32,675 bases of DNA from Pseudomonadota bacterium (GTDB taxonomy: Bacteria > Pseudomonadota > Gammaproteobacteria > Xanthomonadales > Xanthomonadaceae), in the NCBI GenBank assembly GCA_023439425.1, contig JAEXNZ010000299.1:1-32675 (forward strand), given 5' to 3'. The position numbers and the translations under genes are program-made. Below the pieces are notes generated by a model that saw only the letters and a program-made list of their open reading frames with translations, was not told the DNA's origin and searched no databases. Shown here piece by piece: positions 1,133-31,522 of the stretch; position 1 is the stretch's first letter, and each line of letters starts with the position of its first letter.

Positions 1133-1205
1133 GGGTGGATATCCTTGTTGATGGGCTTGCATTACTGAAGTGGTCAATCGGGGGCTTGACCGTGCCGCGC
1201 CTTCA

Positions 1206-3199: not shown

Positions 3200-3214
3200 G
3201 GTCAGGTCAATCCG

Positions 3215-6317: not shown

Positions 6318-6407
6318 GGAATTCATCCGTACTGCTGGAAGATCAATGGGCACGGCACCCCGGCATGCAGCGCCGGTAGCAACGCGTTCGTGAGCACCCG
6401 CAGGCGA

Positions 6408-10072: not shown

Positions 10073-10112
10073 CGAACGCACCCGCGCCACACACGAAGGG
10101 CGCGCATTATCG

Positions 10113-10310: not shown

Positions 10311-11633
10311 ATGAGCTTCACCGCCCCTACCCTCGCCGAGCGCCTGACCCCGCGCGAGCGCACCCTGATCCTGTTGGCCCTGTCGCTGGGCGGCTTTGCC
10401 ATTGGCACCAGCGAGTTCGCCGCCATGGGCCTGATGCTGGAGATCAGCCGCGGCCTGGGCATCGGCGAGACGCAGGTGGGTCATCTCATCAGTGCCTATG
10501 CCATCGGCGTGGTGGTGGGTGCCCCGGTGCTGGCGTTCGCCGGCGCCGGCTATGCGCGCCGCACCCTGCTGCTGGGCCTGATGGGCTTCTATGCGGTGGG
10601 CAACCTGGCCAGCGCGCTGGCTCCCAACTACACCACCATGCTGCTGGCCCGCTTCGTGGCCGGCCTGCCGCACGGTGCCTACTTCGGCGTGGCGATGCTG
10701 GTGGCCGCGGCGATCAGCCCACCGGGCCAGCGCGGCAAAGCCGTGTCCAAGGTGCTGCTGGGCCTTTCCATTGCGATTCTGGTCGGCAACCCGCTGACTA
10801 CCTGGCTGGGCCAGCAGCTGAGCTGGCGCACCGCCTTTGCACTGGTCAGTGTGCTGGCCATTGCCACCGTTGCGATGATCGCCCGCTATCTCCTGCCGGA
10901 CCCGGATGAGGTGCGCACCTCGCCGATGCGCGAACTGCGCGCGTTCAACCGAACCCAGGTGTGGATGGCGTTGGCCATTGGCTCGGTCGGCTTTGCCGGC
11001 ATGTTCTGTGTCTTTACCTACCTGGCCCCCACCCTGGTGCAGGTGACCGGCGTGCGCGAATCGTGGATGCCGGTGGCAGTGGGCATCTTCGGCGTCGGCG
11101 CGATCATCGGCAATGTCGCCGGCGGCTGGCTGGTGGACAAATTCCAGTTCCGCGCCGCGCCCATCGTGCTGCTGTGGTCGGTGGTGGTGCTCATGCTGTT
11201 CCCGCTGGCCGCCAACGCCGTGTGGAGCGTGGTGCCGGTGATTGTCGCCGTGGGCACCATGGGCGCACTGGCCGCTGTGCTGCAGACCCGCCTGATGGAC
11301 GTGGCTGGCGAAGCCCAGACCCTGGCCGCTGCGTCCAATCATGCGGCGTTCAATACCGCCAACGCGCTCGGCCCGTGGCTGGGTGGCATGGCGATTGGTG
11401 CCGGTTTCAGCCCGGCGGTCACCGGCTATGTCGGCGCTGCCACCGCGGTGGGCGGCCTGCTGCTGTGGGGCGTGGCGGTGCTGGTGGAACGCCAGGGCGT
11501 GCGCAGGTTGCCTGCGAGCAGCGCTGACACGCATGGCGTGTCATTACGCGGGGCGTGCACAACGTTCCGACGGATTGCGGATGGCCGGTCACCCCTCGGT
11601 GACCGGCTGCCCACCGCGCTGATCAGAACTTGA
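10311..11633 (+). CDS. MFS transporter, DHA1 type (AraJ/YdhP/NepI-like)
   Basis: 440 aa, about 12 TMs. FAIGTSEF, GHLISAYAIG, ARFVAGLPHGAYFG, AFNTANALGPWLGG. The last ~35 aa look like read-through and overlap the TBDR stop. Confidence 0.9.
   Translation: MSFTAPTLAERLTPRERTLILLALSLGGFAIGTSEFAAMGLMLEISRGLGIGETQVGHLISAYAIGVVVGAPVLAFAGAGYARRTLLLGLMGFYAVGNLASALAPNYTTMLLARFVAGLPHGAYFGVAMLVAAAISPPGQRGKAVSKVLLGLSIAILVGNPLTTWLGQQLSWRTAFALVSVLAIATVAMIARYLLPDPDEVRTSPMRELRAFNRTQVWMALAIGSVGFAGMFCVFTYLAPTLVQVTGVRESWMPVAVGIFGVGAIIGNVAGGWLVDKFQFRAAPIVLLWSVVVLMLFPLAANAVWSVVPVIVAVGTMGALAAVLQTRLMDVAGEAQTLAAASNHAAFNTANALGPWLGGMAIGAGFSPAVTGYVGAATAVGGLLLWGVAVLVERQGVRRLPASSADTHGVSLRGACTTFRRIADGRSPLGDRLPTALIRT
11584..11607. 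terminator. Terminator-like hairpin between the convergent MFS and TBDR genes
   Basis: GCCGGTCACC-cctc-GGTGACCGGC, a perfect 10-bp GC stem 15 nt past the TBDR stop; no clear U-tract. Confidence 0.55.
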
Positions 11634-14496
11634 TCGACATCCGCGCCCAGTAGAAGCGACCGAGCACGTCATAGGTGGCCACGTCGGTGTTGCCGTTGCC
11701 GCCGTTGTTGGCGTAGTACAGCGGAGCCTGCTTGTTGGTCACGTTGTCCACGCCCAGCTCGAACGCGGTGTGCCACGGGGCCACGGTGTAGCCCACCTGC
11801 AGGTTGTGATACACGAACGACCCGATTCGCCGCACCACGCCGGCCTCGTCGGTATCGGCTGACAGGCCCTGGTCCAGGTCGCTGCTGCCGATGCGGGTCT
11901 TGCCGATGTAACGGACGCGCCACGAGGCGCTCCAGTCGTCCTTGTTCCAGCTCAACGTGCCCAGCCCGCGCCAGCGCGGGAAGTTGCCATAGGCATAGGT
12001 GTACATGCCGCCGTTTCGGATGGTGACGGTACTGGGGTCGGTGGTGTCCGGCAGCACGTCGTAGCGCTCCAGATAGGTGCCGTTGAGGCCGGCGCTGAAG
12101 CGGCCCCACGGGGTTTCGTTCAAACGGTAGTTCACGCTGAAGTCCACACCGCGCGTGGCCAGCGTGCCCAGATTGACGGTGGGCTCGGCCACATAGTTGA
12201 TGGTGCCATTGCCGTTGCGGTGGATCAGCGCGCAGAACGCACTTGCCGGGTTCGAGTAGCACTGGTTCAGCACGGTCTGGGCGGAGACGCCGGTGATGGT
12301 GTCCTCCAGGTCGATGCGCCACCAGTCGGCACTGATCGACAGCCCCTCCAGCCATCGCGGGTCATACACGAAACCGACGTCGTACGACTTGCCGGTTTCC
12401 GGCTTCAGCTGATAGCCCGCCACTTCCGCGCCCGACGCCTTTCCCGAGATCTGGCCGTCAGCCTGGTGATAGCTGCCATCGGTCGGCACGTTGGCACAAG
12501 CCACGTCATTGCCGCCGGTGTAGCCATTGCACGGGTCGTTGACCGTCGGCGCGTCGCCCACCACGCCCGAGTACAGCTCATTGATGTTGGGCGCGCGGAA
12601 CACTTCCGACACCGTGCCGCGCAGCAGCAGGTCCTGCACGGGACGGTACTCGATGGACAGCTTGCTGTTGGTCTTGCTGCCGACCGAGCTGTAATCCGAA
12701 AAGCGCGTACCGATGCTGACGTTGAGCGACTGGATGCCCGGCAGATCCTTCAGTAGCGGGAACAGGGCTTCCGCGTAGGCTTCCTTGACGTCGAAGCTGC
12801 CGGTCAGTTGCGAGGCGCAGAATTCGATGACGCCACACAGGCCATTCTCATCACCAGTCCAGAGCGCGTCGGCCTTGCTGGTGCTTTTTTCCTCGCGGTA
12901 GGAAACGCCGACCGCCAGACCCACCATGCCGGCCGGCAACTCGAACAGGTCACCGTTGGCATTGGCTTCGGCCTGCTTGACCGTGTAGACGCTGCTGACC
13001 ACCGGGTTGACGATCATCGACTGCAGCGTGCCCAGGCTGGAGGCGTCGTTGAGATTGAAGATGTTGAGCGGCGTGCAGCCGGCGATCACGTTTCCTGCGC
13101 TGCCGCACTTCACCGTGCCGTCCACGTCGAGGAACGACGGACCGACTGCCTGATTGAACGACGCATAATCCAGGAAGCCATAGTTGGTGGAGGTCTGCTT
13201 CACCCGCCCGTAGTTCAGATTGACGTCCCATTGCCAGGAGCTGCTGCCGAAAGCCCCGCGCAGGCCCGGGCTGATCTGGACGTTGTCGGTCTTGTACTCG
13301 TAGCGGCGATTGCCAAGCACGGTGGCGCGGCTGTTGAGGTCGTTGTAGGACACGCCCGTGGTGCGGTCGGTACCGAAGTTGACCCCGAACGGGTTGTAGT
13401 AGCTGTCGGCGGACACCAGGAAATTGTCGCCGTTGGCGAAGATCGGAATCGGCGCGATCACCGAGGCCGACTCTGTCTTGCTGAACCAGGTGTTGACGTA
13501 ACCCTCAATGTTGTCGGTGAACCGGAACGTCGCCAACGCGAACGCGTTGCTGCGCTCCTGCGGGGTCTGCAGCAGGTTGTACGGCTGGTAGTTGTACGAA
13601 TCGTTTGCCGCGTTGTAACAGTGGAAGTCACCCGGACCGGTGGCACCGGACACCCCACTGTTCAAGGTCACGCGCGAACAGCCATTGGCCGCTGCCAGTG
13701 CGTCCGAGGCGGCAGAGCCGTCATTGAAGTTGATCGACCCGCTCGGCGTGGCGGAGGAGCCCTGCTTCACCGCCTCGCCGCTGCTCAGGTACAGCGCATC
13801 CTTGGAGTAGTCACGGTCGAGCGCCGAGACGGCGTCCAGGTTGTGGTACGACACACCCGCCACGATGCTGCCGCGATCCCAGGCCTTGCCGCCGGTCAGC
13901 GAGAAGTTGCGCCGGTTGCCGTCACCTTCGCTGCTGGTACCGAAGTCCGCGGTGAACTGCACGCCCTCGAAGCGATCACGCAGAATGAAGTTGACCACGC
14001 CACCAATCGCGTCGGAGCCGTAGATGGCCGAGGCACCATCGCTGAGCACTTCGATGCGCTCGATCATGGTGGCCGGAATCGCGTTGACGTCGTTGTAGGC
14101 CAGGCGCACGCCATTGACCAGCACCAGCGTGCGCTTGTCACCCAGGCCGCGCAGCGAGATGGTCGATGCGCCGGTACCGCCGCCGTTGTTGGTATTGGGA
14201 TTGGTGGAGTTGCCGGCGATGGAGGGCAGTTCCTGCAACAGATCACCCACGGTCGCTTTGCCGGTGGCGGCAATCTGCTCCTGGGACACGGTCACCACCG
14301 GGTTGGCGCTTTCGGTATCGACGCGGCGCAGGCGCGAGCCCGTGACCACAATGCTATCCAGGTTGGTGGTCGCGCCGCTGCCGGCGGCCGGGGCCTCCTG
14401 CGCCACGGCAGGTGCAGCAGACGCGAGCAGCAGCACGGCGGCTACGGCAAGGGACAGCGAAGACGCATTCGGTGCATGGAACGGGTGGAACGTCAT
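11623..14496 (-). CDS. TonB-dependent receptor
   Basis: 957 aa. Signal peptide (...AVA/QE), TonB box LDSIVVTGSR, plug motifs ISLRGLG..RTLVLVNG and IERIEVLSDGASAIYGSDAIGGVVNFI, C-terminal Phe; GAGGA RBS. Confidence 0.96.
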   Translation of the reverse strand: MTFHPFHAPNASSLSLAVAAVLLLASAAPAVAQEAPAAGSGATTNLDSIVVTGSRLRRVDTESANPVVTVSQEQIAATGKATVGDLLQELPSIAGNSTNPNTNNGGGTGASTISLRGLGDKRTLVLVNGVRLAYNDVNAIPATMIERIEVLSDGASAIYGSDAIGGVVNFILRDRFEGVQFTADFGTSSEGDGNRRNFSLTGGKAWDRGSIVAGVSYHNLDAVSALDRDYSKDALYLSSGEAVKQGSSATPSGSINFNDGSAASDALAAANGCSRVTLNSGVSGATGPGDFHCYNAANDSYNYQPYNLLQTPQERSNAFALATFRFTDNIEGYVNTWFSKTESASVIAPIPIFANGDNFLVSADSYYNPFGVNFGTDRTTGVSYNDLNSRATVLGNRRYEYKTDNVQISPGLRGAFGSSSWQWDVNLNYGRVKQTSTNYGFLDYASFNQAVGPSFLDVDGTVKCGSAGNVIAGCTPLNIFNLNDASSLGTLQSMIVNPVVSSVYTVKQAEANANGDLFELPAGMVGLAVGVSYREEKSTSKADALWTGDENGLCGVIEFCASQLTGSFDVKEAYAEALFPLLKDLPGIQSLNVSIGTRFSDYSSVGSKTNSKLSIEYRPVQDLLLRGTVSEVFRAPNINELYSGVVGDAPTVNDPCNGYTGGNDVACANVPTDGSYHQADGQISGKASGAEVAGYQLKPETGKSYDVGFVYDPRWLEGLSISADWWRIDLEDTITGVSAQTVLNQCYSNPASAFCALIHRNGNGTINYVAEPTVNLGTLATRGVDFSVNYRLNETPWGRFSAGLNGTYLERYDVLPDTTDPSTVTIRNGGMYTYAYGNFPRWRGLGTLSWNKDDWSASWRVRYIGKTRIGSSDLDQGLSADTDEAGVVRRIGSFVYHNLQVGYTVAPWHTAFELGVDNVTNKQAPLYYANNGGNGNTDVATYDVLGRFYWARMSIKF

Positions 14497-14753
14497 GGCG
14501 AATTTCCTCGGTCATGCGACTGCCGGAGTTCGGGCGACAACACGTCCCCGCACCGGCATGCGCCAGTGGATCGGTTCTTTCGGAGTTATGGACGGGCGTT
14601 CCACGCCCTGAAGATGACTACGTGTTTTTCATCACACGGTCACAATGTGCCGGCCGCCCGGTGCGACGTCTTGACGCTTTTACTGCATCTGGATGCGGAA
14701 TAAGGCATGGCGGCAGGTGCACTGGGAACGGCCCAGCCACGCAGGGCGTGGCT

Positions 14754-17102
14754 CTACGTTGCATGGGTCAGCCAGCCACCGAACAGCGGGCCTGCGGTGT
14801 CGCCGTGTTGCGGCTCGAAGCGGATCTTCAGCGGCTTCCCCTCGCGGGTAAGCGCGTGCGGCAAGGCATATTCGTGGTCCACAAAATCCAGCACCTGCCC
14901 GCGCTCGACCTCGACTTCCACCGCAAGCGTTCCATTCACCAGAATATTGAAGCGCCCCTTGTCGCTGCCCCAGAAACGCAGGCGCAGGGCCAGCGGCTGG
15001 CGGCTGCCCTGCATCGCGAATTCCACGAAGCCCTTGCCGCGTACGTCACGGCATTCCTGGCGCCGGTAAGCCGCGGAGAACGACGTATCACTGGTGAGAC
15101 CATGGGCCTTCTCGGAGGCCTCGTTGCCAAACTGGATCATGTCCACGGCATCGGCCTGCAGCTGTGCACGCTCCGCAACGGCCTGTTCGCGACGTTTCGC
15201 TTCGGCGACCCATTGCGCAGCGTCCATGCGCTTGAAGTACAACGCGCTGCGGCGGTCGTGCTGGGCGTAGAAGGGAGAGAACTCCAGCGCCTGCGGACGC
15301 GTGGTGCTGGCCAGGAAGCGGCCCGGCTCCGGTAGCGCGCTGAAGCCGGCCAACGGCGACGCATCGGCCACCAGCGCGGGATCGGGCGCATCCCAGGGAT
15401 CACTGACCGGCCCAAGATCAGCCGCGAGTGCCAGCGGACCGCGCATCACCACCACGGTGTCGGCGTCGCCCGCGGCGTGCTCCAGTCGCAACGGCGTGGC
15501 GAGGTCCAGCTCGACGACATCGCCGACCTTCCACCGTCGCTCCAACAACGCGTACCCCTCCTGCAGGGTGCTTGACGCCTTGCGGCCGTTGACCTTCAGT
15601 GCAAAGCGCCCTTCCGTCCACGCGGGAATCCGCAGCAGCAGCCGCTGCGGCGCAGCGTCATCTGCACGCGTCACCTGCAGGCGCACCCGCCCATTGAGCG
15701 GCACGCCACTGTCGAGCGTCAGGGCCAGCCCGCCCTGCTTCCAGTCCAGCGTGGACGGGATGTACAGATTGACGTACAGCGACTGCTCGTCCTGCCAGTA
15801 AATGGAATCGCCGAACTGGGCGTGCGCCTCCATCCCGCTGCCCACGCAGCACCAGAACGAATCAAACTTGTCGGAGAAGCCCCGCTCACCACCGGTGATC
15901 ATCGGCGTCATGTAGGTGAACATGCCCGTCTCCGGGTGCTGGGCCGACATCGTGTGGTTCAGCAGGGTGCGCTCGTAGTAGTCGAAGTAGCGCGCCTGCG
16001 GCGTCCATTGGTACAGGTGCCGGGTCAGCTTGAGCATGTTGTAGCTGTTGCAGTGCTCGCAGGTCTGCTCGGTCAGAAACGCGGCAATGGTATCGGGCTG
16101 CTGGAAGTACTCGCGGTCGGCGTTGCCACCGATCACGTAGCTGTAGTGCGCGGTCACCGTCTCCCAGAAGAAGCGCGCGCCGGCCGCGGAATCGAGATCA
16201 CCCGTGACTTCGAACTGCAGCGCCTCGCCGATGAACTTGGGCACCTGGGTGTTGGCGTGATGGTGCGGCAGGTTGTCCTTGCCGGCGATGGCCGGGTCGA
16301 CAATGCCTTCGTGGCGCAGGCGCTTGCCGATCGCGATCCAGCGTGGATTGTTGGTGCGCGCGCCCAGCTCGATGTACGACTCGTTGAGGCCGCCGAATTC
16401 TGTGGCCAGCAGGGACTGCATCTGCGCGTGATCAAGGGCATCGAAAACACCGGCCAGGTACGTCGCCAGCAGCAGCAGCACCGGCAGTGCCTGTGTATTG
16501 GCGGCCAGCGCATCGGCATCCAGCAGGCCGGCGAACAGTTTGTGCACCGTGTACAGCGGCGACCAGCTGCCATTGATGTTGAATCTGCTGCCGGTCACCG
16601 CGCCGGCACGGATCTGTTCGAAGACCTGCTTGCCGCCCTCGATATCGCCTGCATCGGTCTTGCGGGTCAGTCCGCCGACGTAGCCATCCTTGTCCTGGGC
16701 CTGCGCACGCGCCAGCTCTGAGACGATGTAGTCGATGCGCTGCCGGACCTGCACATCGCGGGTCTGCGCATACAGCTTGGACAGCGCGCTGAGGTAATGG
16801 CCGAGGGTGTGGCCGGCGATGGTGTCGCCCTCCCAGCCGCCGTAGACCGCGCCTTTGGGCACGAGTCCGGCCTGCTGGAGGAAGTTGTGCAGCAGGCGGT
16901 CTGGCTCCAGCTCGAACAGGTAGCGACGGTTGACCTGCAGGGAATCCAGGAACATCGATGGTTTCAGCGTGACATCCTGCAACGGCAGCGCGGTGACCCG
17001 TCCGGCGGTAGACGCGGCCACGTCCAGCGGGAAGCGCAGCATGCCAGCGGCAACAGCCAATGCACTCCACTGCAGGAAACGTCGGCGGGACGGGTCAGTC
17101 AT
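14754..17102 (-). CDS. Tat-exported beta-L-arabinofuranosidase, GH146/GH127 cysteine glycosidase (HypBA1-like)
   Basis: Start re-called at ATG 17102 after GAGGAGG (782 aa). Tat motif SRRRFL; YGGWE, GHYLSA, HANTQVPK, GGNADREYF, TCEHCNSYNMLK and FWCCVGSG (Zn-Cys3-Glu site). Confidence 0.88.
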   Translation of the reverse strand: MTDPSRRRFLQWSALAVAAGMLRFPLDVAASTAGRVTALPLQDVTLKPSMFLDSLQVNRRYLFELEPDRLLHNFLQQAGLVPKGAVYGGWEGDTIAGHTLGHYLSALSKLYAQTRDVQVRQRIDYIVSELARAQAQDKDGYVGGLTRKTDAGDIEGGKQVFEQIRAGAVTGSRFNINGSWSPLYTVHKLFAGLLDADALAANTQALPVLLLLATYLAGVFDALDHAQMQSLLATEFGGLNESYIELGARTNNPRWIAIGKRLRHEGIVDPAIAGKDNLPHHHANTQVPKFIGEALQFEVTGDLDSAAGARFFWETVTAHYSYVIGGNADREYFQQPDTIAAFLTEQTCEHCNSYNMLKLTRHLYQWTPQARYFDYYERTLLNHTMSAQHPETGMFTYMTPMITGGERGFSDKFDSFWCCVGSGMEAHAQFGDSIYWQDEQSLYVNLYIPSTLDWKQGGLALTLDSGVPLNGRVRLQVTRADDAAPQRLLLRIPAWTEGRFALKVNGRKASSTLQEGYALLERRWKVGDVVELDLATPLRLEHAAGDADTVVVMRGPLALAADLGPVSDPWDAPDPALVADASPLAGFSALPEPGRFLASTTRPQALEFSPFYAQHDRRSALYFKRMDAAQWVAEAKRREQAVAERAQLQADAVDMIQFGNEASEKAHGLTSDTSFSAAYRRQECRDVRGKGFVEFAMQGSRQPLALRLRFWGSDKGRFNILVNGTLAVEVEVERGQVLDFVDHEYALPHALTREGKPLKIRFEPQHGDTAGPLFGGWLTHAT

Positions 17103-17121
17103 GAAAACCTCCTCAATGGAT

Positions 17122-19482
17122 TCAGCCATAGCGGGCCTGCACGCGCACGGTGGCCCCGGCGGTAAACGGCAGCGGCACGCGGTCGTGGTGGGGACCGCCG
17201 GCCTTGGCCGCCTTGCCGTCCACCGAAATCTCCAGCAGGCGTGTGCCAGCCGGCACCCGCAGGGTCAGCCAGGTGGTGCCGGGTTGCTGCGGAGGCAGGG
17301 TCACCTCGGCTTGGATGCGCTGCTGCGCCAAGTCCGCACGCAGCTGCAGGCCGACCCGGCCCCACGGGGTGGGTGCGTCCTGCAGTGCAATCGGCTGGCC
17401 GGTGGCCAGCCAGTCGCGCGGGACGCCACGGGCCAGATACAGGTCCTGGTCCTGGTCGAACACCAGCATCCAGCGCAGCAGCAGCGGTACCGTCATCTGC
17501 GCGGGCATGCAGAACAGCGGCATGCCGCCGGTGATGCCCGCCACTTCGCCTGCGGTCCAGCTGCCGCGCGTATGTGCCTGGTAGCGGTGGGCATACAGGA
17601 ACAGCAGATACTCCTCGATCCGATCCAGCCGCAGCAGCTGCTGGGCGTGGCCATAGGAGATGAAGCCGAGAATGTCGCGCGCTTCCGGGGTGGGCTTCCA
17701 GATATTGGACACAATGCCCAGCGTGGTGCCGCCATGGCCGCGCAGGCAATCGATCACCAGGTTGGCAAGGTCGGGCGGCAACACGTCGGCCTGCAGCAGT
17801 TCGGCATAGGAACGGTGCGACCACAGCTGTTCGCTTTTGCTCGGATCTTCCTGCGACATGGCCTGGCGGAAGGTCTCGGTGGTGCCCGGCAGCGGGCCCA
17901 GGTAGGCTGGCCGCAGGTCATGCCGGATATCCGCGCGGATGCTGTCCAGCAGGCGCTGGCGCAGTTGCCGGGCGCGGCGTTGCCAGTCGCGGCTGGTTGC
18001 ATCGTTGCCGGTCAGCGCCGGCCATACCGCGGCAATGTCCTCCCAACCGCGGATCACTAAGGCGCTGTTGCCGAAGTACGGCTTCCACCACAGCGAGGGA
18101 TCCGGATACAGGCAGGCGTCGGACTCGCTCCAGCCATGGATCAGGCCATGGCCGCGATCACTTCGCGGCAAGGCGAGGCTGGCGTCGTGCAGTTCGACCA
18201 GCAACGCGGCGGTCGCTTCGATCTTTGCCTGATGGCGGCGCAGCAGCGCCGTGTCGCCGGTGTAGCGGAGGTAACGCGCCAGCAGTGACAAAGTCAGGCC
18301 AAACTGCCCCACCTGTGGACCGCGCATGTTCACCAGACCGTCGGACTGGGTGTACTCGCCCAGGTAGTTGTCCAGCACCGCCCTCGCCTGCGCGAAGCGC
18401 CCCCATTCCAGATTGGCGTACAGCGAACTGGTGAAGGTGTCCTGGAAGCCGTCGTATTCGTTGCCGGCGTAATCGCGGTCCACCGCGCCATACTTCGGAT
18501 ACACACCGCCCGGGCGCACCACCAGCTCGCGTGCGAAGGCGAAGCGGGCCAGGTCGGGCCAGCTCGCATCGGGCAGCCGTGCCGCGCTGGCCTCGGCCAG
18601 CTGGGCCTGCCAGGTCGCGGCAAAGTCGATCAGCCCGCGGTAGAAGTCCTCGGCGCTGGCACCGTGGCGGCGCGGCGGAAAGTCGGGATAGCTGTAGCCC
18701 ACGACGGTGCGCACCGCTGTGCCGTGTTCGACCAGCACGGTGCGATGCCAGGTCTGCACGATGAAGCGGTCCTGCGCATTGACGTCGGCGAACACCGACA
18801 CGTCGTACCAGCGTCCCTCACCGGCCGGCACCACTTTGTGCACCGCCGGCATCCAGCCGCCCAGCAGCCCCTCCTCGCGGCGTGCGACCTTGTCCGCGTC
18901 GGCCAGCTCCGGGAAGGCGTGGATCGGCCGGTACGTGCGGCTGCGCCCGTCCGGGTAGATCTGCATGGTGTCGTTGCCCTGCACCGTGCCGACGAAGGTG
19001 GTCCACGGCAGCCGCCCGTTGTGGTCCTTCGGGTCGAGCCGGGACGCCGGCGGCGGTGCGACATCACGCACAGCCGCCTCATTCGGATCCCCATCGCGCA
19101 GCAACCGGTCGGCCAGCAGGTCGGCCTCAGCCATCGCCAGTTCGGCCAGCGGCAGGCCCAGGTATGGCGGAGCTTCGCTGCCCCACACCGCTTCGGTGCG
19201 CTTGCCGAGATTCAGTACGCCGACTGCACAGGCCAGCACCAGCGGCCCCTGCGGCGTGCGCAGATCTTCATGGACGCTCCAGCGCGTGCCGCGATGCTGG
19301 AAAGTGGCCAGCGTGGTGAATCCAGTGAGGTCGACGGTAGATGCAGGCTCCAGCATCGGCGCCGGTGGCACCGCCACGGACGGCGTGGCATCTCCCGCAG
19401 CGACGGCGCTGGCGAGGGACGGCAGCAGGCCCATGCCGGCGGTTGCCGCCGCGCCCTGACGCAGGAATGTTCTGCGATCCAT
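17122..19482 (-). CDS. Tat-exported uncharacterised protein, probable (alpha/alpha)6 glycosidase-like fold
   Basis: 786 aa. Tat signal MDRRTFLRQG; helical C-terminal half with NEYDGFQD, YLRYTGD, GWSESD and WTAGE; terminal LARGVPRDW...APTPWG segment resembling six-hairpin GH C-termini; lies between two glycosidase genes. Confidence 0.7.
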   Translation of the reverse strand: MDRRTFLRQGAAATAGMGLLPSLASAVAAGDATPSVAVPPAPMLEPASTVDLTGFTTLATFQHRGTRWSVHEDLRTPQGPLVLACAVGVLNLGKRTEAVWGSEAPPYLGLPLAELAMAEADLLADRLLRDGDPNEAAVRDVAPPPASRLDPKDHNGRLPWTTFVGTVQGNDTMQIYPDGRSRTYRPIHAFPELADADKVARREEGLLGGWMPAVHKVVPAGEGRWYDVSVFADVNAQDRFIVQTWHRTVLVEHGTAVRTVVGYSYPDFPPRRHGASAEDFYRGLIDFAATWQAQLAEASAARLPDASWPDLARFAFARELVVRPGGVYPKYGAVDRDYAGNEYDGFQDTFTSSLYANLEWGRFAQARAVLDNYLGEYTQSDGLVNMRGPQVGQFGLTLSLLARYLRYTGDTALLRRHQAKIEATAALLVELHDASLALPRSDRGHGLIHGWSESDACLYPDPSLWWKPYFGNSALVIRGWEDIAAVWPALTGNDATSRDWQRRARQLRQRLLDSIRADIRHDLRPAYLGPLPGTTETFRQAMSQEDPSKSEQLWSHRSYAELLQADVLPPDLANLVIDCLRGHGGTTLGIVSNIWKPTPEARDILGFISYGHAQQLLRLDRIEEYLLFLYAHRYQAHTRGSWTAGEVAGITGGMPLFCMPAQMTVPLLLRWMLVFDQDQDLYLARGVPRDWLATGQPIALQDAPTPWGRVGLQLRADLAQQRIQAEVTLPPQQPGTTWLTLRVPAGTRLLEISVDGKAAKAGGPHHDRVPLPFTAGATVRVQARYG

Positions 19483-19587
19483 TCAACCCCACCTGTGGTG
19501 ACGAGTCTCCATGCTGCGCGGCGCGACTTCTGCCGTCTTGTTACCGACCGATGACATCGATGCGGCTTTCCGCACACTTTCAAGCGT

Positions 19588-21195
19588 TCAATACGTCCCG
19601 ACCGTTACTCGCAGCACCGGCGGATCCTCGCGCACGAAATTGAGGCCATAGTCGGTCTGGTCGCCATTGAGCAGTCGCTCGAACTGCCACTGGCCGTTCA
19701 CGTAGCGGCCCTGCTCCACCCGCAGCAGCTGCCCATGCAGCGCATCGTTGGCGACGCGCACGAACTCCGCGCGGGCGGAAAGGCCGGTCAGCAGGAACTG
19801 ATTTTTGGCCGTCTGCGCCACCAGCAAGCGGCCGCCGTGGTCGGCGTTGCCGGGCAGGATCGGATCGGCATCCCCCCAGTACGGTGCGCCGTAGGACACA
19901 CGCACCTCCCAGTCGCCGAAGCGCAGACTGCGCTTGGGTTGGCCCGGCTGCTCGGCCACCGCCTGCAGCCGGCCTTCGAACGCCGCCTTTGCGATCAGCC
20001 GCTGCAGGGGCGCAAGCTGGCCGAAGTTGGCAGCATGCGCGGTGGTCGCCGCGCGCTTCTCCGGCGAATCCAGCCCATCCATGCCAAACACCGAGAAGCC
20101 GATGCCGCCCTGCCCCAGCACGTGGAACAGATAGGGGGTAGTGCCTGGCTCAAAGCCGGTTTCGGACACCCAGGCCGGATTGTCCGGGCGCGCATATTGG
20201 CCGATGACCTGGGTGTATTCGCTGTAGTCGGTGGTGTAGATGTCGGTGCCGATGAAATCGATCGACGGCGTGGCCGCACGCCACAGGTCGAACACGTTGA
20301 CCGTAGCCCCGCCGGAGGGATAGTCCACGCCCGGATAGCGCTTGCCCTTGTAGCGCAGCCAGGTGTTCACATACATCGGCATGTCGTAGACGCGTTTGCC
20401 TGCGGCTGCCACCTGCTCGATGTAGTGGGCGGTGGCATACGCATTGAAGGCTTCATCCGCCTCGGGCCCGAACACGTCCCGCCAGGTGCCGGCCGGCTTG
20501 CCCACCCGGGTGGTGATGGCCGCCGGTACAGGCTGGGCAAACGCCGCATTGGCGGCAGCGCCGTGGTCACGCACCGCGCCGATCGCGCCCGGCTCGTTCT
20601 CCACCTGAACCAGGATCACCGTGTGGCGCTGGCCATCGACCTCGCGCAGATGCTTCATCAGCGCAGCGAACGCGCGCGCATCTGCCTCGACATTCGCGCT
20701 GGCGTGCGGCGACAGCACATCCACCGGTTCGCCGCGCTCGTCCAAGGTGCGCGGGTAAGTCACCGCATCACGCTTGATCCACTCCGGCACGTAATGCATC
20801 TGCCCGTTCTTCCAGCTGCCGAACCACAGCAGGGCCACCCGCAGATTGCGTCGCCGGGCCTGCTCGATCAGCGCGTCAACATTCGTGGTGTCGTACTGCC
20901 CCGGCGAAGGCTCGAACTGTTCCCAGTACACCGGGGCCTCCACCGTATTGGCGTTCAGCGCCACCACCTGGTCCAGCGCACCCGGCAACACCGCCGGCCA
21001 GGCACTGGAATTGTGCAGCTGGGCGGCCAACACGGTGTACGGTTCACCATCGACCAGCAGAGCATGCCGACCGTTCTCGGTAACGAACCGTGGCATCTGT
21101 TCGGCCCCGAACGCAGGCAGGCTCAGGCACGCCAGCAACAGGCCGGTCACGCTGAACGCCATGGCGCGTCGCGGGGAAGTTGCGGAGACGGTCAT
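19588..21195 (-). CDS. GH35-like (clan GH-A) beta-galactosidase with DUF5597-type C-terminus
   Basis: 535 aa. Signal peptide; AAQLHNSSAW, WFGSWKNG, QVENEPG (acid/base), YPSGG, WVSETG (nucleophile), RLLNGDQT. Confidence 0.85.
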   Translation of the reverse strand: MTVSATSPRRAMAFSVTGLLLACLSLPAFGAEQMPRFVTENGRHALLVDGEPYTVLAAQLHNSSAWPAVLPGALDQVVALNANTVEAPVYWEQFEPSPGQYDTTNVDALIEQARRRNLRVALLWFGSWKNGQMHYVPEWIKRDAVTYPRTLDERGEPVDVLSPHASANVEADARAFAALMKHLREVDGQRHTVILVQVENEPGAIGAVRDHGAAANAAFAQPVPAAITTRVGKPAGTWRDVFGPEADEAFNAYATAHYIEQVAAAGKRVYDMPMYVNTWLRYKGKRYPGVDYPSGGATVNVFDLWRAATPSIDFIGTDIYTTDYSEYTQVIGQYARPDNPAWVSETGFEPGTTPYLFHVLGQGGIGFSVFGMDGLDSPEKRAATTAHAANFGQLAPLQRLIAKAAFEGRLQAVAEQPGQPKRSLRFGDWEVRVSYGAPYWGDADPILPGNADHGGRLLVAQTAKNQFLLTGLSARAEFVRVANDALHGQLLRVEQGRYVNGQWQFERLLNGDQTDYGLNFVREDPPVLRVTVGTY

Positions 21196-23507
21196 GGCTG
21201 TCCTTCCTTTTCTGCATTCCAGCGCGGTGTCGGCGCACGCATCAGGTGGCGTACGAAGAAATCAAACTGGCGTCGGGTGACGTAATCGATGGGCCCGGTC
21301 GAGCGGCCCACCGAGTGCTCGCCGCCGGGGACATTCAGCAGATCGAAGTCCTTGCCGGCCTTGATCAGCGCATCGACGACCTGTGCGGTCGAGGCCGGAT
21401 CGACGTTGCTGTCCTGCTCACCCACCACCAGCAGCAGGTCGCCACGCAGCTTGGACGCATGGGTCACGCCGGAGGCGCGCGCGTAGCTGGCGTCCACCGG
21501 CCAACCCATCCACTGCTCGTTCCAGCTGATCTTGTCCATGCGGTTGTCGAAGCAGCCGGCCATGGCCACCCCCACCGTGTACAGCTCGGGATGCAGTTCC
21601 AGCGCGCCCAGCGTGCTCTGGCCGCCCGCTGATGCGCCGTAGATACCCACGCCGCGGGAAATGTCGTAGGACGGATCTTTGGCCGCCAAGGCCTTGTGCC
21701 AGGCGATGCGGTCAGGAAAGCCGGAGTCGCCCAGGTTCTTCCAGGCCACGTCATGGAAGGCCTTGGAGCGGTGGGCGGTGCCCATGCCATCGATCTGCAC
21801 GACGATGAAGCCGAGGTCAGCCAGTGCCTGCATGCCGATCTGCTTGTCGCCACCAGAGTGGTAGCCGAACGGCCAGAAGGTCTTGGGCACGAAAGCATCA
21901 TGCGGGCCGGCATAGATGTTCTCCACCACCGGGTAGCGCCGCTTCGGGTCGTAATCACGGGGGCGCACCACCATGCCCCAGATGTCGGTGCTGCCGTCCC
22001 GTCCTTTGGCCACGAAGGTTTCCGGTGCCTTCCAGCCGGCGGCAAGCAGGCGCGAGATATCGCCACGGGCCAGCTCGCGGACCAGGGTGCCGTCAATGCG
22101 GTGCAGTGACGCGACCGGAGCCATGTCCGGGCGCGAGTACACATCGATGTAGTAGTGCCCATCCCGGGAGATGGCGACATCGTGATCGGCAGGGGCATGG
22201 GTCAGGCGGTTCAGATTGCGGCCGTCGAAGTCCACGCTGAACAGGTGCCGCTGGTATGGGTCCTGGCCCGCGTCCATGCCGCTGGCGCTGAACCAGATGC
22301 GGCGCTGGGCATCGTCAACATGCAGTACATCGCGCACCACCCAGTCGCCCTGGGTGATCTGCTGCCGGACGCTGCCATCGGTGCCATCGATCAGATAGAG
22401 ATGCCGCCAACCGTCGCGTTCGGAGATCCAGAGCAGCTCCCTGCCCTGCCCGCCAACATCGTGCACGAAGGTGCGATCGGCATACACAAAGGTGTCGGCC
22501 TTCTCTTCAACGGCCGCGTGCGCTTCGCCGCTGCCCGCGTCAACCGCAACCACCCGCACGGTCTGGAAGCCGCGTGCGACGTACTCGATGCTGAAGCTGC
22601 TTCCGTCGCTGCGCCATTGAATGGGCGACAGCGAATACGGGTTCGACAGCAAGGGGGTGTCGATCAACTTACGGTTTCCCGCCACGTCGAGCAGCACCGG
22701 CTGCTCGATGTCCACCGCATCACCGGGCTTGGGATACAACTGGGTCTGCAGCACCGGCTGAAGCTGGCCGGCGGGTGCGCTCTCAACGCGGGTCACCAGC
22801 CGCGGGAATCCGGGTGTCACCCGGTACAACGCGATATGCCGTGAATCCGGCGACCACGCGAGGGTTTCCGGATCGTAGAAGGCATCGCCGCGCCCATCGC
22901 GGGTCAGCGGGGTGACCTTGCCGTCGGCCACGTGGCGCAGCACCACGTTGAATCCCTCGGCATAAGCCTCCCATTGACCGTCCGGCGAACGGCGCGGCGC
23001 ATTGTCGGCCGGTACACGCAGATCGCGCACCACGCCAAATCCGCGTGGACGACCGGCCCGCGTGACCGGCGCGCAGAGGTAGTCGGTCAAGGTGCATCGC
23101 CACGTGGCATAGGTGCTGTCCAGGCTGAAGCGGATCGCACCGTTAGGGTTGTCACCTTCCGCCACGTATGCGAACTGCGAGAACGGCAGCTTCAGCGGTG
23201 CCACGTCCTGACCGCTGGCGGCCGACAGTCCCTGCGCCAGCCGCACGGCATCGAATGCAGGCTGCAGCTGCGCGCTGTCCGGCGAGCCGAGCACGAAGGC
23301 AAAGCCGCCTTCCACCGTGTGCCGGTAATAGAAATGCCCATCGCCGCGCCACTGCGCCGGGAAGGCCACGTCGCGGGTCAGCCCGCTCCAGGCCTCACGC
23401 AGGCCCAGCGAGCGGCGATAGTCATCTGCGTCCGGGGCGGCCGAGACCGTGGCACTCGCCCAGACCATGCCCACCAGCGTCAGCGCCCGCACCATCTTAT
23501 TCGCCAT
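21192..23507 (-). CDS. Secreted S9 family (DPP IV-like) serine peptidase
   Basis: 771 aa. Signal peptide; beta-propeller elements (SPDG, WSPDS, SERDGWRHLY), YAGPH, triad motifs GASAGG / DSNV / GGEHS. Confidence 0.9.
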   Translation of the reverse strand: MANKMVRALTLVGMVWASATVSAAPDADDYRRSLGLREAWSGLTRDVAFPAQWRGDGHFYYRHTVEGGFAFVLGSPDSAQLQPAFDAVRLAQGLSAASGQDVAPLKLPFSQFAYVAEGDNPNGAIRFSLDSTYATWRCTLTDYLCAPVTRAGRPRGFGVVRDLRVPADNAPRRSPDGQWEAYAEGFNVVLRHVADGKVTPLTRDGRGDAFYDPETLAWSPDSRHIALYRVTPGFPRLVTRVESAPAGQLQPVLQTQLYPKPGDAVDIEQPVLLDVAGNRKLIDTPLLSNPYSLSPIQWRSDGSSFSIEYVARGFQTVRVVAVDAGSGEAHAAVEEKADTFVYADRTFVHDVGGQGRELLWISERDGWRHLYLIDGTDGSVRQQITQGDWVVRDVLHVDDAQRRIWFSASGMDAGQDPYQRHLFSVDFDGRNLNRLTHAPADHDVAISRDGHYYIDVYSRPDMAPVASLHRIDGTLVRELARGDISRLLAAGWKAPETFVAKGRDGSTDIWGMVVRPRDYDPKRRYPVVENIYAGPHDAFVPKTFWPFGYHSGGDKQIGMQALADLGFIVVQIDGMGTAHRSKAFHDVAWKNLGDSGFPDRIAWHKALAAKDPSYDISRGVGIYGASAGGQSTLGALELHPELYTVGVAMAGCFDNRMDKISWNEQWMGWPVDASYARASGVTHASKLRGDLLLVVGEQDSNVDPASTAQVVDALIKAGKDFDLLNVPGGEHSVGRSTGPIDYVTRRQFDFFVRHLMRAPTPRWNAEKEGQP

Positions 23508-25068
23508 CGTCCTCGTCCAACTTCAGCTCACTGGGGGTCAAACCACTGCGCGCGCCCCAGTGGTAGATGAAGAACGCAATCACCGCCACGCTTGCGGTGT
23601 CCCACGGATGGGTGATGGCGGCGATGCCGCCGAAGGTTCCCAGGTACGACACGGCCATCACCAACACAAAGAACGCGATCAACCACGCGGAGCTGCGCAC
23701 CTGCCGCAGCACGCGTGCCCGGCGCTGCGGATTGGGCAGCTGCGAGACCACATACACCACGTAGATCCCCACCTGCAGGCCCAGCAGCCACGACACCGTT
23801 TTCCAGGTCGACCAGTACACGATCAATGCCGCAATCATGAACGACAGCGGTCCCAGTACAGACAGCGCCTTTACCCGGAACGGACGCTCAAGATCAGGCG
23901 CGCTGCGGCGCAGTGCGGCCACCGTCACCGGCGCGATGGCGTAGCTCAGCACCAGCGCCGCCGAGACCACGCCGATCAGCGTCTCCCACGACGGGAACGG
24001 CAGCGTCCAGAACACCGAAAGCCCGAAGCTCAGCCACAGTGCGGGACGCGGAATGCCCGACTTCGCATCCACCTTGGTCAGCGCCGGCAGGAAACCACTG
24101 CCCCGCGCCCAGCCATACACCACGCGCGGCGTGGCATTCATGTAGATGTTGCCGGTACCGCTGGGCGACACCACGGCATCGGCCACCACCATCGTGGCCA
24201 GCCAGCCCATGCCGAGTGCCACCGCGATGTCGCGGTACGGCAGCGCATACAGCTTGTCCATGCCGGCCCAGCCATTGGCCAGCACGTCGCCCGGCACCGC
24301 GCCCAGAAAAGAGACTTGAAGCAGCACGTAGATCACCGTGGACAGCGCCACCGACAGAATCAGCGCGAACGGGATGGTGCGCTGGGGGTTACGCACCTCG
24401 CTGGCGACAGACACGATCGGCGTCAGCCCAAGATAGGCAAAGATGATGCCGCCTGCGGAGATCGCCGCTTCCACACCGGCCATGCCCGAGGGCGCGAAGC
24501 CCTGGCTGGTGAGATTGTCCGGATTGAAGTGTGCGAGCAGCAGCACGATCACCAGCACCGGTACCAGGAACTTGAACACGCTGATGATGTTGTTGGCCCG
24601 GGCGAAGGTCTTCACGCTGAAGTAGTTCAGCAAGAAGAACGCAACGAGCAGCGCGAACTGCACCAGCCAGCCGAGCAGCGTGGGATGGGTGCTGTCCGGT
24701 TGAGTAAGTGACGGGAACCAGGCTGCGGCGTACTGCCGGCAGGCTTCCACTTCGATGGCGATCAGACTGGAAAAGGCAATGAGCGTGATGAAGCCGGTCA
24801 GCCAGCCGAGCAGCGTGCCGTGCGAGTACTCCGGGTAGCGCACCACGCCGCCGGCGCGCGGCAGCGCCGCGCCCAGCTCGCAGTACACCAGCCCCAGCAG
24901 GAACACCGCGATGCCGCCAATGATCCAGGACAGGATGCCGGCGGGTCCGGCAATCGAAGACACGTGGCTGGCGGCGAACAACCAGCCCGAGCCGAAGATC
25001 GAGCCGAGGCCGATGAAGGTGAGATCGGTCAGGCTCAGGCGCTTGTGGAACTTTCCTGCAGGTGCCAT
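23497..25068 (-). CDS. APC family amino acid permease (YveA-like; candidate hydroxyproline/proline transporter)
   Basis: Start probably ATG 25068 (523 aa). GSIFGSGWLF, YCELGAALPRAGG, FAYLG, SEVRNPQRTIP, LERPFRV; 12-14 TMs. Confidence 0.9.
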   Translation of the reverse strand: MAPAGKFHKRLSLTDLTFIGLGSIFGSGWLFAASHVSSIAGPAGILSWIIGGIAVFLLGLVYCELGAALPRAGGVVRYPEYSHGTLLGWLTGFITLIAFSSLIAIEVEACRQYAAAWFPSLTQPDSTHPTLLGWLVQFALLVAFFLLNYFSVKTFARANNIISVFKFLVPVLVIVLLLAHFNPDNLTSQGFAPSGMAGVEAAISAGGIIFAYLGLTPIVSVASEVRNPQRTIPFALILSVALSTVIYVLLQVSFLGAVPGDVLANGWAGMDKLYALPYRDIAVALGMGWLATMVVADAVVSPSGTGNIYMNATPRVVYGWARGSGFLPALTKVDAKSGIPRPALWLSFGLSVFWTLPFPSWETLIGVVSAALVLSYAIAPVTVAALRRSAPDLERPFRVKALSVLGPLSFMIAALIVYWSTWKTVSWLLGLQVGIYVVYVVSQLPNPQRRARVLRQVRSSAWLIAFFVLVMAVSYLGTFGGIAAITHPWDTASVAVIAFFIYHWGARSGLTPSELKLDEDDGE

Positions 25069-25119
25069 GGGGTTCCCCGGTTGGTGCATGGAATGCAAGC
25101 TGAAGTGGTACGAGTGGCC

Positions 25120-28700: not shown

Positions 28701-28729
28701 GCGCTTACTCCGGTAGGGGCGTGATGTCC

Positions 28730-29932
28730 TCAGGCGAACGGGCGGTCAATTGCCGGCGACGGCCGCGTGAACCACTGCGCGCCGCTGGCGGTTACGTAGA
28801 AGTGGTCTTCCAGGCGCACGCCGAACGCCCCCGGGACCACGATCATCGGTTCATTGCTGCAGCACATGCCCGGCTGCAGGACGGTGTCGTTGCCGCGTAC
28901 CAAGTACGGAGCTTCGTGGATGGCCAGACCGCAACCGTGACCAGTGCGGTGCGGCAATCCGGGCAGGCGGTAATCGGGGCCCAGCCCAGCGGCTTCCAGC
29001 ACTGCGCGTGCCGCTGCGTCGACCGAGGCACAGGCGACGCCGGGGCGCACTGCTTTGAACGCCGCCGCCTGTGCAGCATGTTCCAGATCCCAGATGCGCC
29101 GTTGCTCATCGCTGGGCTCACCGAAGATCCAGGTCCGGGTGATATCGGAGTGGTAGCCCTGCACCGTGCATCCGGTATCGATCAGCACCAGCTGGCCGGG
29201 GGCCAGATGCTGCACGCCGGGAATGCCATGCGGGAACGCGGTGGCATGACCGAACTGCACGATGCAGAACGTGGACCCATTGTCGGCCCCGAGGGCGCGA
29301 TGGGCCTGGTCGATGAAGCGCACCAGTTCATCGGTACCGATGCCTTCCCGTGCGATGCCTGCGGCGAGGCGATGCACATGCAGGGTCATGTCGCAGGCCT
29401 GCTGCATCAACGCCAGTTCCGCCGGCGACTTACACATGCGGCAGCCGTCGATGATCGCGGTCGCGTCACGGATGTCGGCCGCTGCAAGGTGCGCGGTCAG
29501 ACCGGTGTGCACGCCGAAGGCAATGCCCGGGTCCACCGCCAGCGTGCGCGCACCGCGTTCGGCCATCAAGCCGGCCACCAACGCGTGCGGGTCTTCGTGC
29601 TCCTCCCACAGGCGCTTGTCCGCCGGGATCTTCAGCACCGCGTCCAGCGAGCCTTCCTCGAACACCGGGCAGACCAGCAGCGGCTCGCCTTCCCGTGTGA
29701 GCAGCAGGGCCACCAACCGCTCGGTCGCGCCCCAGGGCACGCCGGCGAAGTAGCGCAGCGACGTCCCGGCACCCACCAGCAGTGCGTCCACGCCCTGCGA
29801 CTGCATCAGTGCACGGGCGTGGGCGATGCGCGCTTGGTACTCCTCGGCTGCGATGGCCGGGGCACGGTCTTCCCATGGCTTGAGCTGGGCCTGGGCTTCG
29901 GCAAGCGTGAGTCCGCCGATCTGGCCGCTCAC
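28730..29932 (-). CDS. M24B Xaa-Pro peptidase (prolidase / aminopeptidase P family), cytoplasmic
   Basis: 400 aa, GTG start. Creatinase-like N-domain, KSPAEL, metal-ligand motifs DTG..YHSDITRT, HRTGHGCGLAIHE, SNEP, RLED. Confidence 0.92.
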   Translation of the reverse strand: MSGQIGGLTLAEAQAQLKPWEDRAPAIAAEEYQARIAHARALMQSQGVDALLVGAGTSLRYFAGVPWGATERLVALLLTREGEPLLVCPVFEEGSLDAVLKIPADKRLWEEHEDPHALVAGLMAERGARTLAVDPGIAFGVHTGLTAHLAAADIRDATAIIDGCRMCKSPAELALMQQACDMTLHVHRLAAGIAREGIGTDELVRFIDQAHRALGADNGSTFCIVQFGHATAFPHGIPGVQHLAPGQLVLIDTGCTVQGYHSDITRTWIFGEPSDEQRRIWDLEHAAQAAAFKAVRPGVACASVDAAARAVLEAAGLGPDYRLPGLPHRTGHGCGLAIHEAPYLVRGNDTVLQPGMCCSNEPMIVVPGAFGVRLEDHFYVTASGAQWFTRPSPAIDRPFA

Positions 29933-31521: not shown

Positions 31522-31522
31522 A

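Follow-up and report, generated by a model that had tools for sequence, protein, structure and literature searches.

We analysed a stretch of 32,675 nucleotides of DNA (the window). It makes up an entire contig in the genome assembly, 76% complete, of a bacterium from the Xanthomonadaceae. The gene under study lies at 17122..19482 on the minus strand, and it encodes P0001, a 786-amino-acid protein with a signal for twin-arginine translocation (Tat). A first reading of this DNA, which used only the sequence and its open reading frames (ORFs), had described a Tat-exported protein of this length with three motifs. The translation confirms the protein and all three motifs (NEYDGFQD at residues 341-348, HGWSESD at 449-455, and SWTAGE at 641-646), and we can add the strand: the frame is open on the minus strand only, and there are stops in the plus-strand frame. 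The gene runs from an ATG at 19482, with a Shine-Dalgarno-like sequence (AGGTGGGG) ahead of it, to a TGA stop at 17124-17122. There are 19 nucleotides between this stop and the ATG at 17102 of a gene for a beta-L-arabinofuranosidase, so the spacing given by the sequence-only reading holds with that start. Position 17102 is the likely start, and it is preceded by GAGGAGG; with the longest ORF of the arabinofuranosidase gene, the start would be at 17129, and there would be an overlap of 8 nucleotides with the gene for P0001. In a scan of positions 11000-30500, promoters and terminators were not above chance (1 vs. 2.0 expected and 10 vs. 9.8 expected). The closest relatives of P0001 carry the name Stenotrophomonas (P0002, which is 96% identical, and those at L003 and L004).

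P0001 begins with MDRRTFLRQG, and its N-terminus as a whole reads MDRRTFLRQGAAATAGMGLLPSLASA, followed by VAAG. Residues 1-26 (19405..19482, minus strand) have the three parts of a twin-arginine signal peptide: an RR motif (DRRTFLR), a hydrophobic stretch, and an AxA site (in LASA). Cleavage is probably after A26. The Tat consensus is of the type S/T-R-R-x-F-L-K. Within the first 60 residues, the RR motif is found in all 113 of the full-length close homologues and in 9 of the 39 members of A1, which is a diverse alignment of the P0001 family. More distant members mostly have Sec-type signals or none. With the Pfam TAT_signal model, there was no match to P0001, and only 3 of the 39 members of A1 were matched.

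P0001 did not match any family in Pfam (E ≤ 0.01) or NCBIfam, and neither P0001 nor the A1 profile matched any chain in the Protein Data Bank (PDB) at E ≤ 10. The sequence-only reading could not assign the protein to a named family, and this stands for Pfam, NCBIfam, and PDB sequences. A Pfam scan of the 39 members of A1 at E ≤ 10 found no recurring family, and 25 distant relatives had no Pfam domain across the homologous part. As for specific glycoside hydrolase (GH) families, there was no match to Pfam's Glyco_hydro_15 or to the solved members of GH15; no match to PF04685, the catalytic model of GH116; and no family-level Pfam match to GH95, GH94, or GH78 for P0001 or the A1 members. For GH127 and GH146 (PF07944, DUF1680-type), there was no Pfam match and the hhalign comparison gave 8.4%, limited to the C-terminal sandwich. 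For GH121, hhalign of A1 against 10 GH121 sequences gave 0.2%, and neither P0001 nor the profiles matched PDB entry 6m5a. A class-wide PF22422 search for the family alignment gave 0 of 61 genomes, and a Chou-Fasman profile of the alignment was uninformative. At E ≤ 0.001, the relatives of P0001 number 1271 cluster representatives (148 at 1e-30), and of the candidates scored, 1620 proteins reach this threshold. Where the 120 relatives listed have a name, it is “Tat pathway signal protein,” [quoted passage not shown] “secreted protein,” or “hypothetical protein.” A search for fused forms of over 1376 amino acids found none, which is weak evidence. Our search of the literature, supplementary files aside, found no paper that describes this family; a search for XCV2725 or 8IWD found nothing, and a search for 8FAA or 8FA4 found unrelated text only.

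The AlphaFold2 (AF2) model of P0001 has a mean pLDDT of 92.7 and a pTM of 0.92, with pLDDT below 50 at residues 1-3 and 13-35. It has three domains, all on the minus strand: an N-terminal beta-sandwich (a beta-rich domain by DSSP of the model) at residues 56-263 (18694..19317), a helical barrel of the (alpha/alpha)6 type at residues 277-673 (17464..18654), and a C-terminal beta-sandwich at residues 674-786 (17125..17463). The three motifs are within the barrel, so they do lie in a helical region, as the sequence-only reading had it. That reading had also supposed that P0001 was an (alpha/alpha)6 glycosidase, and this high-confidence model, together with structural comparisons by Foldseek and VIA-align, supports a barrel of the glycosidase type. 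With Foldseek, the matches at E ≤ 10 number at least 500, of which 147 have E ≤ 0.001. All of the 47 matches listed are carbohydrate-active enzymes or putative glycosidases, including GH95, GH94, rhamnosidases, glucodextranase, GH116, GH127, GH139, glycogen debranching enzyme (GDE), and cyclic glucan synthase. The best match listed was 2rdy (2.4e-10, TM 0.38).

We then considered the results of VIA-align for Foldseek's top 999 chains, of which 727 had Z ≥ 8 and 50 entries were listed. According to the tool, chance matches between helical proteins reach a Z of about 14, and the values for P0001 are far above this. The highest was for the 5z3a series, named “Glycosidase” (Z = 28.0, rmsd 3.2 Å, 316 residues aligned, residues 301-675 of the model, so the barrel only); we take 5z3a to be the isomaltose glucohydrolase of Kribbella flavida, from GH15. 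Next were dextran dextrinase (27.1), the bacterial glucoamylase 1lf6 (26.1, 450 residues aligned, residues 155-680 of the model), and glucodextranase 1ug9 (25.0). Glucoamylase and glucodextranase belong to GH15. The matches to GDE, GH63, GH94, GH116, and rhamnosidases had Z of 22-25; these include GDE 7vma (24.2), GH63 4wvb (24.1), GH94 3s4c (24.0, 521 residues aligned, residues 91-783), TxGH116 (23.3), and ExoMA2 8ic6 (22.1, 526 residues aligned, residues 93-785). The matches to bacterial glucoamylase, GH94, and GH116 reach into the N-terminal domain of P0001. The ESM Atlas gave feature-based leads: GH15-like (0.94, 187 shared features), MGH1/trehalase (0.91), and GH63 (0.90).

The best structural matches are thus to GH15 (1lf6, 1ug9, and the 5z3a series), and in both GH15 and P0001, an N-terminal beta domain (a beta-sandwich in the AF2 model) is followed by the (alpha/alpha)6 barrel. 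However, the identity in the structural alignments is just 9-13%, P0001 has an extra C-terminal beta-sandwich, and its gene context is the breakdown of plant glycoproteins and not of alpha-glucans. P0001 also has the general barrel fold of GH121 and GH142, which are active on beta-L-arabinofuranosides; that they share a kind of substrate with P0001 as well is so only under the reading that we favor below. GH121 and GH142 are absent from the 47 Foldseek and 50 VIA-align matches listed, which excludes nothing.

Before the AF2 model was available, we had obtained sequence bridges to other families with six-hairpin barrels. The profile of P0001 weakly matches a second family, of about 1060 amino acids, in many Xanthomonadaceae genomes (for example, on G000:C334 and at L086:1805-4990 on the plus strand). 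In most of the 90 matching genomes, the weak profile matches are to this CBM32-bearing family. These proteins have CBM11-like and F5/8 type C modules at their N-termini, as well as faint matches to GDE_C and to the rhamnosidase six-hairpin domain; they have no PDB match other than for the CBM32 module, and they are likewise uncharacterised. A comparison of the two families by hhalign gave 99.4% (E = 3.6e-21) over residues 279-760 of P0001. A merged profile of both families had two PDB matches at E ≤ 10, 8iwd (0.02) and 7vma (0.67), and both of these are six-hairpin enzymes.

The other bridge is A7, an alignment of 20 homologues of an acidobacterial neighbour protein that has GH116 and MGH1-like domains according to Pfam (precomputed lists add GDE_C) and which NCBI names “GH116 family glycosyl hydrolase.” By itself, the acidobacterial protein gave 66.7% in hhalign to the P0001 family, and A7 gave 97.8% (E = 8.7e-13, 454 columns, residues 288-786). 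Among solved structures, A7 in turn matches GDE 7vma (5.6e-19) and, at about 5e-4, RhaB and TxGH116; the alignment to TxGH116 spans profile positions 420-565 only. GH116 enzymes are retaining and have a Glu nucleophile and an Asp acid/base. A7 and its relatives (7vma, TxGH116, and ExoMA2) have the same domain order as P0001, with homology over the barrel and the C-terminal domain, and the C-terminal sandwich of P0001 aligns with those of both A7 and the CBM32-bearing family. Nevertheless, P0001 is not matched by the Pfam models for GH116, MGH1-like, or GDE_C, and its VIA-align Z to GH116 is below those to GH15. Overall, the fold and the comparisons to Pfam, NCBIfam, and PDB sequences suggest that P0001 is a periplasmic, three-domain glycoside hydrolase from a family that these resources leave uncharacterised; its activity is a prediction.

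Conserved residues point the same way. Among 179 sequences of 650-1000 amino acids (121 close and 58 distant), Y331, D455, R557, E646, and W691 are each conserved in 178, E453 and E561 in 177, and D121 in 176. The carboxylates among these (D121, E453, D455, E561, and E646) are thus near-invariant. D344, which is in the first motif, is conserved in 157 of the sequences, and 8 more have glutamate instead. E453, D455, R557, E561, and E646 are all in the barrel, while D121 and another near-invariant residue, E72, are in the N-terminal domain. In the hhalign alignments, both E453 and E646 have equivalents in the invariant glutamates of the CBM32-bearing family (which has WIRDGA where the P0001 family has E(Y/H)DGFQD), and in A7, the invariant “PE” glutamate is opposite E646. 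Also, GWSES in P0001 resembles GWKDS in 7vma. The acid and base glutamates of GH15 are about 190 residues apart, and we liken the two invariant glutamates of P0001, which have about this spacing, to that pair. P0001 might catalyze inverting hydrolysis as GH15-type enzymes do, with E453 as the general acid and E646 as the general base; we see this as an even bet.

Between positions 32425 and 11623 of the window, the genes are all on the minus strand and form a co-directional array. Directly upstream of P0001 is a GH35 beta-galactosidase with DUF5597 and a Sec-type signal (19588..21195; assigned by Pfam and NCBIfam, with PDB matches to 8faa at 1.7e-272, 7kmn, and CjBgl35A). Downstream is the arabinofuranosidase (14754..17102), which has a Tat signal, the GH127 catalytic and middle domains (4.4e-118), and DUF6805; its best PDB match is 5opj (7.1e-130, vs. 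1.4e-13 for the GH127 enzyme HypBA1, 3wkw), and it is 54% identical to a 791-amino-acid protein from Xanthomonas euvesicatoria (L111:7068-9443). We call it XeHypBA1-type. It is followed by a TonB-dependent receptor (TBDR) with plug and beta-barrel domains (11623..14496). Upstream of the GH35 gene are an S9 peptidase of the DPP-IV type (21192..23507, DPPIV_N and Peptidase_S9), an amino-acid permease (23497..25098, AA_permease_2), two DUF885 genes (ORFs 25120-27180 and 26892-28700, at 1.3e-161 and 2.4e-171), and an M24 peptidase of the Xaa-Pro dipeptidase (prolidase) type (28730..29932, Peptidase_M24 and Creatinase_N, with the PepQ model below its cut-off). The two DUF885 ORFs overlap as listed, so the true start of 25120-27180 is probably internal. 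The array begins with a DHDPS-family gene (31523-32425) and an aldehyde dehydrogenase (29929-31542), both identified by Pfam. Going by their families only, these two are candidates for the Pyr4H2C deaminase and the alpha-ketoglutarate semialdehyde dehydrogenase, respectively, in the last steps of hydroxyproline (Hyp) catabolism in bacteria. None of the DHDPS-family, aldehyde dehydrogenase, prolidase-type, and DUF885 genes received a name from NCBIfam above the cut-offs, so we infer their role in Hyp catabolism. According to the sequence-only reading, the window lacks a recognisable alpha-L-arabinofuranosidase, a GH121 enzyme, and an enzyme for Ser-O-alpha-Gal; our Pfam scan of 21 ORFs agrees, with the GH35 beta-galactosidase present. 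In the source genome, we did not find GH121, and the GH43 genes are distant only.

To see if this context is conserved, we examined 80 loci from genomes, almost all of them from Xanthomonadales, and identified partners within 10 kb by using tblastn with a panel of proteins, which may miss divergent partners. The most common partners were TBDR (73 loci), the amino-acid permease (56), DUF885 (54), GH35 (46), S9 (42), GH127/146 (41), GH121 (34), and GH43 (31). Orthologues of the aldehyde dehydrogenase and the DHDPS-family gene were nearby in 24 and 18 loci. At least one partner from a glycosidase family was present in 75 of the 80 loci, and GH127/146, GH121, or GH43 was present in 74; the six loci with none of these are L077, two from Dyella marensis, and three short ones. 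We also considered a sample of 201 genomes from the family, including the source genome, of which 200 were scored. There were orthologue-level matches to P0001 in 17 of these, and in every one of the 17, the contig with the orthologue also carries an XeHypBA1-type gene (54-100% identical) at a distance of 0.1-18 kb; in the window, the two genes are adjacent. Two genomes in the sample have a 49%-identical arabinofuranosidase and no orthologue of P0001, and none of the six other genomes of the source genus has an orthologue of P0001.

The linkage extends to another phylum. Among 301 genomes of Acidobacteriota, 8 have matches at 1e-40, and five of these 8 are at the orthologue level, including G201, which is flagged as unpublished. 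We examined the four public loci, and three of them have a GH127/146 gene nearby. The first has M61 and M1 peptidases, the homologue of P0001, GH127, and a TonB-like barrel; the second has GH127, a GH27 alpha-galactosidase, DUF5695, the homologue, and a barrel; the third has DUF5695, a barrel, the homologue, and GH127; and the fourth has GH31, DUF5695, and the homologue. A scan of metagenomes, from a 10-sequence alignment, gave another 80 loci. Of these, 26 are distant (under 57% identity) and extend for 3 kb or more on either side of the gene. A partner from a glycosidase family is present in 17 of the 26 and a peptidase or amino-acid partner in 12, while 5 lack any partner. Arrangements in metagenomes include DUF885-GH31-gene, DUF885-gene-DPP-IV, and a proline dehydrogenase that adjoins the gene. 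GH27 (Melibiase) is present in 3 of the 80 genome loci and 4 of the 80 metagenome loci, and GH31 is present in 10 of the 80 metagenome loci. Overall, most of the relatives that we examined are in a context of glycoprotein degradation rather than among unrelated genes.

The Xanthomonas loci connect P0001 to enzymes that have been characterised. In X. euvesicatoria, the orthologue of P0001 (about 66% identical) heads the hypBA2-hypAA-hypBA1 array. The order is the P0001 orthologue, TBDR, GH121 (which matches 6m5a at 8.7e-212), a 528-amino-acid GH43, S9, TBDR, and a 791-amino-acid arabinofuranosidase with DUF6805, about 16 kb downstream. The lengths of 528 and 791 agree with XeHypAA and XeHypBA1 (PMC6085000). 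XeHypAA (GH43) converts Ara4-Hyp to Ara3-Hyp, and XeHypBA2 (GH121) releases Araf-beta1,2-Ara (PMC6085000). XeHypBA1, which is classed as GH146 (PMC10850190), acts mainly on Ara-Hyp and partially on Araf-beta1,2-Ara (PMC6085000, PMC10850190). In the passages available from these reports, three such activities of bacterial arabinoside-active enzymes are characterised (PMC6085000, PMC7263609). The known systems to compare with are the XCV2724-XCV2729 cluster and hypBA1/hypBA2/hypAA of Bifidobacterium longum. The likeness is that the orthologue of P0001 opens the X. euvesicatoria array, although the passages on XCV2724-XCV2729 characterise the three enzymes and do not mention this orthologue. Unlike that cluster, the window's locus lacks GH121 and GH43.

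Within Xanthomonas, some species have the cassette TBDR-GH121-GH43 and others lack it, with the flanking genes in place. (This is from a comparison of L021, L028, L030, L034, L039, L044, L045, L047, and L050 with the other Xanthomonas loci.)

We propose that P0001 belongs to the conserved core of a locus for the import and dismantling of Hyp-rich glycopeptides of the extensin type, and we put the probability that it is a glycosidase that works in the breakdown of Hyp-glycopeptides at roughly 70%. A TonB-dependent receptor would move glycopeptides or oligosaccharides into the periplasm, where P0001 and the adjacent XeHypBA1-type arabinofuranosidase would strip the sugars. Then the DPP-IV, DUF885, and prolidase-type peptidases would cleave the Pro/Hyp-rich backbone, and the permease and downstream enzymes would import and burn the products.

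Which bond would P0001 cut? It is unlikely to duplicate the activities of GH121, GH43, or XeHypBA1, because it co-occurs with all three and because the loci that have the GH121-GH43 cassette and those that lack it are interleaved in a tree of 159 distinct sequences. We expect it to act on a bond that the characterised enzymes handle poorly. The remaining bonds are the beta-1,2-arabinofuranosyl bonds (of the biose Araf-beta1,2-Ara and of Ara2-3-Hyp) and Gal-alpha-Ser. Araf-beta1,2-Ara is poorly served because XeHypBA1 acts on it only partially. Our tentative choice is the beta-1,2-L-arabinofuranosyl bond of Araf-beta1,2-Ara and/or of Ara2-3-Hyp glycopeptides. This would explain the strict pairing, in loci of both kinds, with an enzyme that is narrowly for Ara-Hyp. 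Also, genes from GH27 or GH31 adjoin the gene in several lineages, and furanosidases do occur in this superfold: GH116 includes an exo-beta-D-arabinofuranosidase, ExoMA2 (PMC10509167).

The main rival is that P0001 is a periplasmic alpha-galactosidase that removes Ser-O-alpha-Gal from extensin peptides. Its nearest structural relatives (glucoamylase, glucodextranase, and GH63) act on alpha-D-glycosides, and this activity would fit loci with and without GH121 and GH43. No alpha-galactosidase family was found among the 21 ORFs scanned in the window, and according to the passages available from PMC6085000, the three characterised Xanthomonas enzymes are inactive on the Gal-alpha-Ser bond. However, the activity would be redundant where GH27 or GH31, which are families with alpha-galactosidases, adjoin the gene. 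Furthermore, we know of no (alpha/alpha)6 family of alpha-galactosidases. We consider the alpha-galactosidase unlikely.

It is less likely still that P0001 acts on some other glycan, or is a phosphorylase, lyase, or transglycosylase, and is tied to Hyp-glycoproteins by neighbourhood only. The match to GH94 phosphorylases has a Z of about 24 over 520-530 residues. One relative (P0190, 1611 amino acids) has its P0001-type domain at residues 1047-1609, behind DUF4962 and a heparinase II/III-like C-terminal domain (Hepar_II_III_C). More distant paralogues adjoin genes for GH35, GH31, DUF2961, or 3-keto-disaccharide hydrolases, and some distant loci have unrelated neighbours. Against this, Tat export to the periplasm probably suits a phosphorylase poorly, the gene is linked repeatedly, across two phyla, to an XeHypBA1-type gene and to proline-specific peptidases, and genes of the Hyp-catabolism type are in the same co-directional array.

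The sequence-only reading had proposed that P0001 supplies a missing activity, such as the alpha-1,3-L-arabinofuranosidase of GH43 or the beta-L-arabinobiosidase of GH121, in bacteria without them; the content of the source genome would fit, and GH121 is also an (alpha/alpha)6 enzyme (PMC7263609), but the gene has GH121 as a neighbour in 34 of the 80 genome loci and GH43 in 31, the X. euvesicatoria orthologue adjoins the characterised genes, the gene is kept whether or not the cassette is there, and the hhalign comparison to GH121 was negative, so we see this replacement as very improbable.

Several observations count against our preferred reading, that P0001 is a glycosidase of the Hyp-glycopeptide pathway and perhaps a beta-1,2-L-arabinofuranosidase. 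GH121, which makes the biose, was not found in some of the genomes that keep the gene (G204, G017, and the 76%-complete source genome), so in these, only the trimming of Hyp-linked chains would be possible, and not hydrolysis of the biose. The fold is shared with the GH94 phosphorylases, and the domain ahead in the fused relative looks like that of a lyase. The tentative assignment of E453 and E646 as acid and base comes from conservation and the likeness of GWSES to GWKDS; hhalign places D455, not E453, opposite the invariant Asp of A7, and the invariant E405 of A7 faces a glycine of P0001. As for the gene context, most of the loci are from related bacteria and are not independent. L077, which is in a genome flagged as unpublished, has no glycosidase-family partner, there is no panel partner in 5 of the 26 long distant loci (L144, L159, L169, L171, and L184), and Pfam scans found unrelated neighbours in L159 and L177/L184.

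It is possible, with the odds somewhat against it, that P0001 founds a new GH family of periplasmic enzymes that are dedicated to the O-glycans of Hyp-rich glycoproteins, either as a beta-1,2-L-arabinofuranosidase that trims Ara2-3-Hyp and Araf-beta1,2-Ara to the Ara-Hyp on which XeHypBA1-type enzymes act or as the first (alpha/alpha)6 alpha-galactosidase for Gal-alpha-Ser. In any case, it is well conserved and might found a family of glycosidases, in a superfold and a type of locus that are both known. Its model is confident, and it is a concrete candidate for a missing step. Either activity would complete the bacterial pathway for the deglycosylation of extensins, and the family would then be a genomic marker for this process in soil and plant-associated bacteria. 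Extensins and related Hyp-rich glycoproteins are a large and recalcitrant pool of carbon and nitrogen in plant cell walls. The family is tied genetically to the pathway in Xanthomonas (plant pathogens), in Stenotrophomonas, Dyella, and Luteibacter (rhizosphere), and in soil Acidobacteriota. If P0001 is active, it would probably add a glycosidase family and improve the annotation of plant-glycoprotein turnover in soil metagenomes.

The loci also contain other proteins that may be of interest. DUF5695 proteins of about 930-960 amino acids lie beside the gene in 3 of the 4 acidobacterial loci and in 9 of the 80 metagenome loci (for example, L104:5613-8411, L105:343-3201, L106:5501-8299, L158:2665-5541, L177:12905-15757, and L180:13754-16546), and were not seen in the 80 Xanthomonadales-rich loci. 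DUF5695 is a candidate for a further uncharacterised enzyme of the same pathway; the only mention of it that we found in the literature is in one fungal paper. Positions 1103-1258 of the GH121 alignment, in the accessory domain, match the C-terminal part of arabinofuranosidases (G483:C1:4190321-4190743, which is inside the GH127 gene of L103, and G044:C31:13569-14042), which suggests that an accessory module may be common to the GH121 and arabinofuranosidase families.

Elsewhere in the window, a 233-amino-acid ORF (9389-10090, minus strand) has high GC content at third positions and matches no Pfam family. Finally, positions 737-8943 (minus strand) hold a type IV secretion set that is unrelated to our findings about P0001: a TrbC/VirB2 pilin, an SLT transglycosylase, a VirB11-type ATPase, TrbI/VirB10, CagX/VirB9, VirB8, a TcpQ-like ORF, and a VirD4-type coupling protein.

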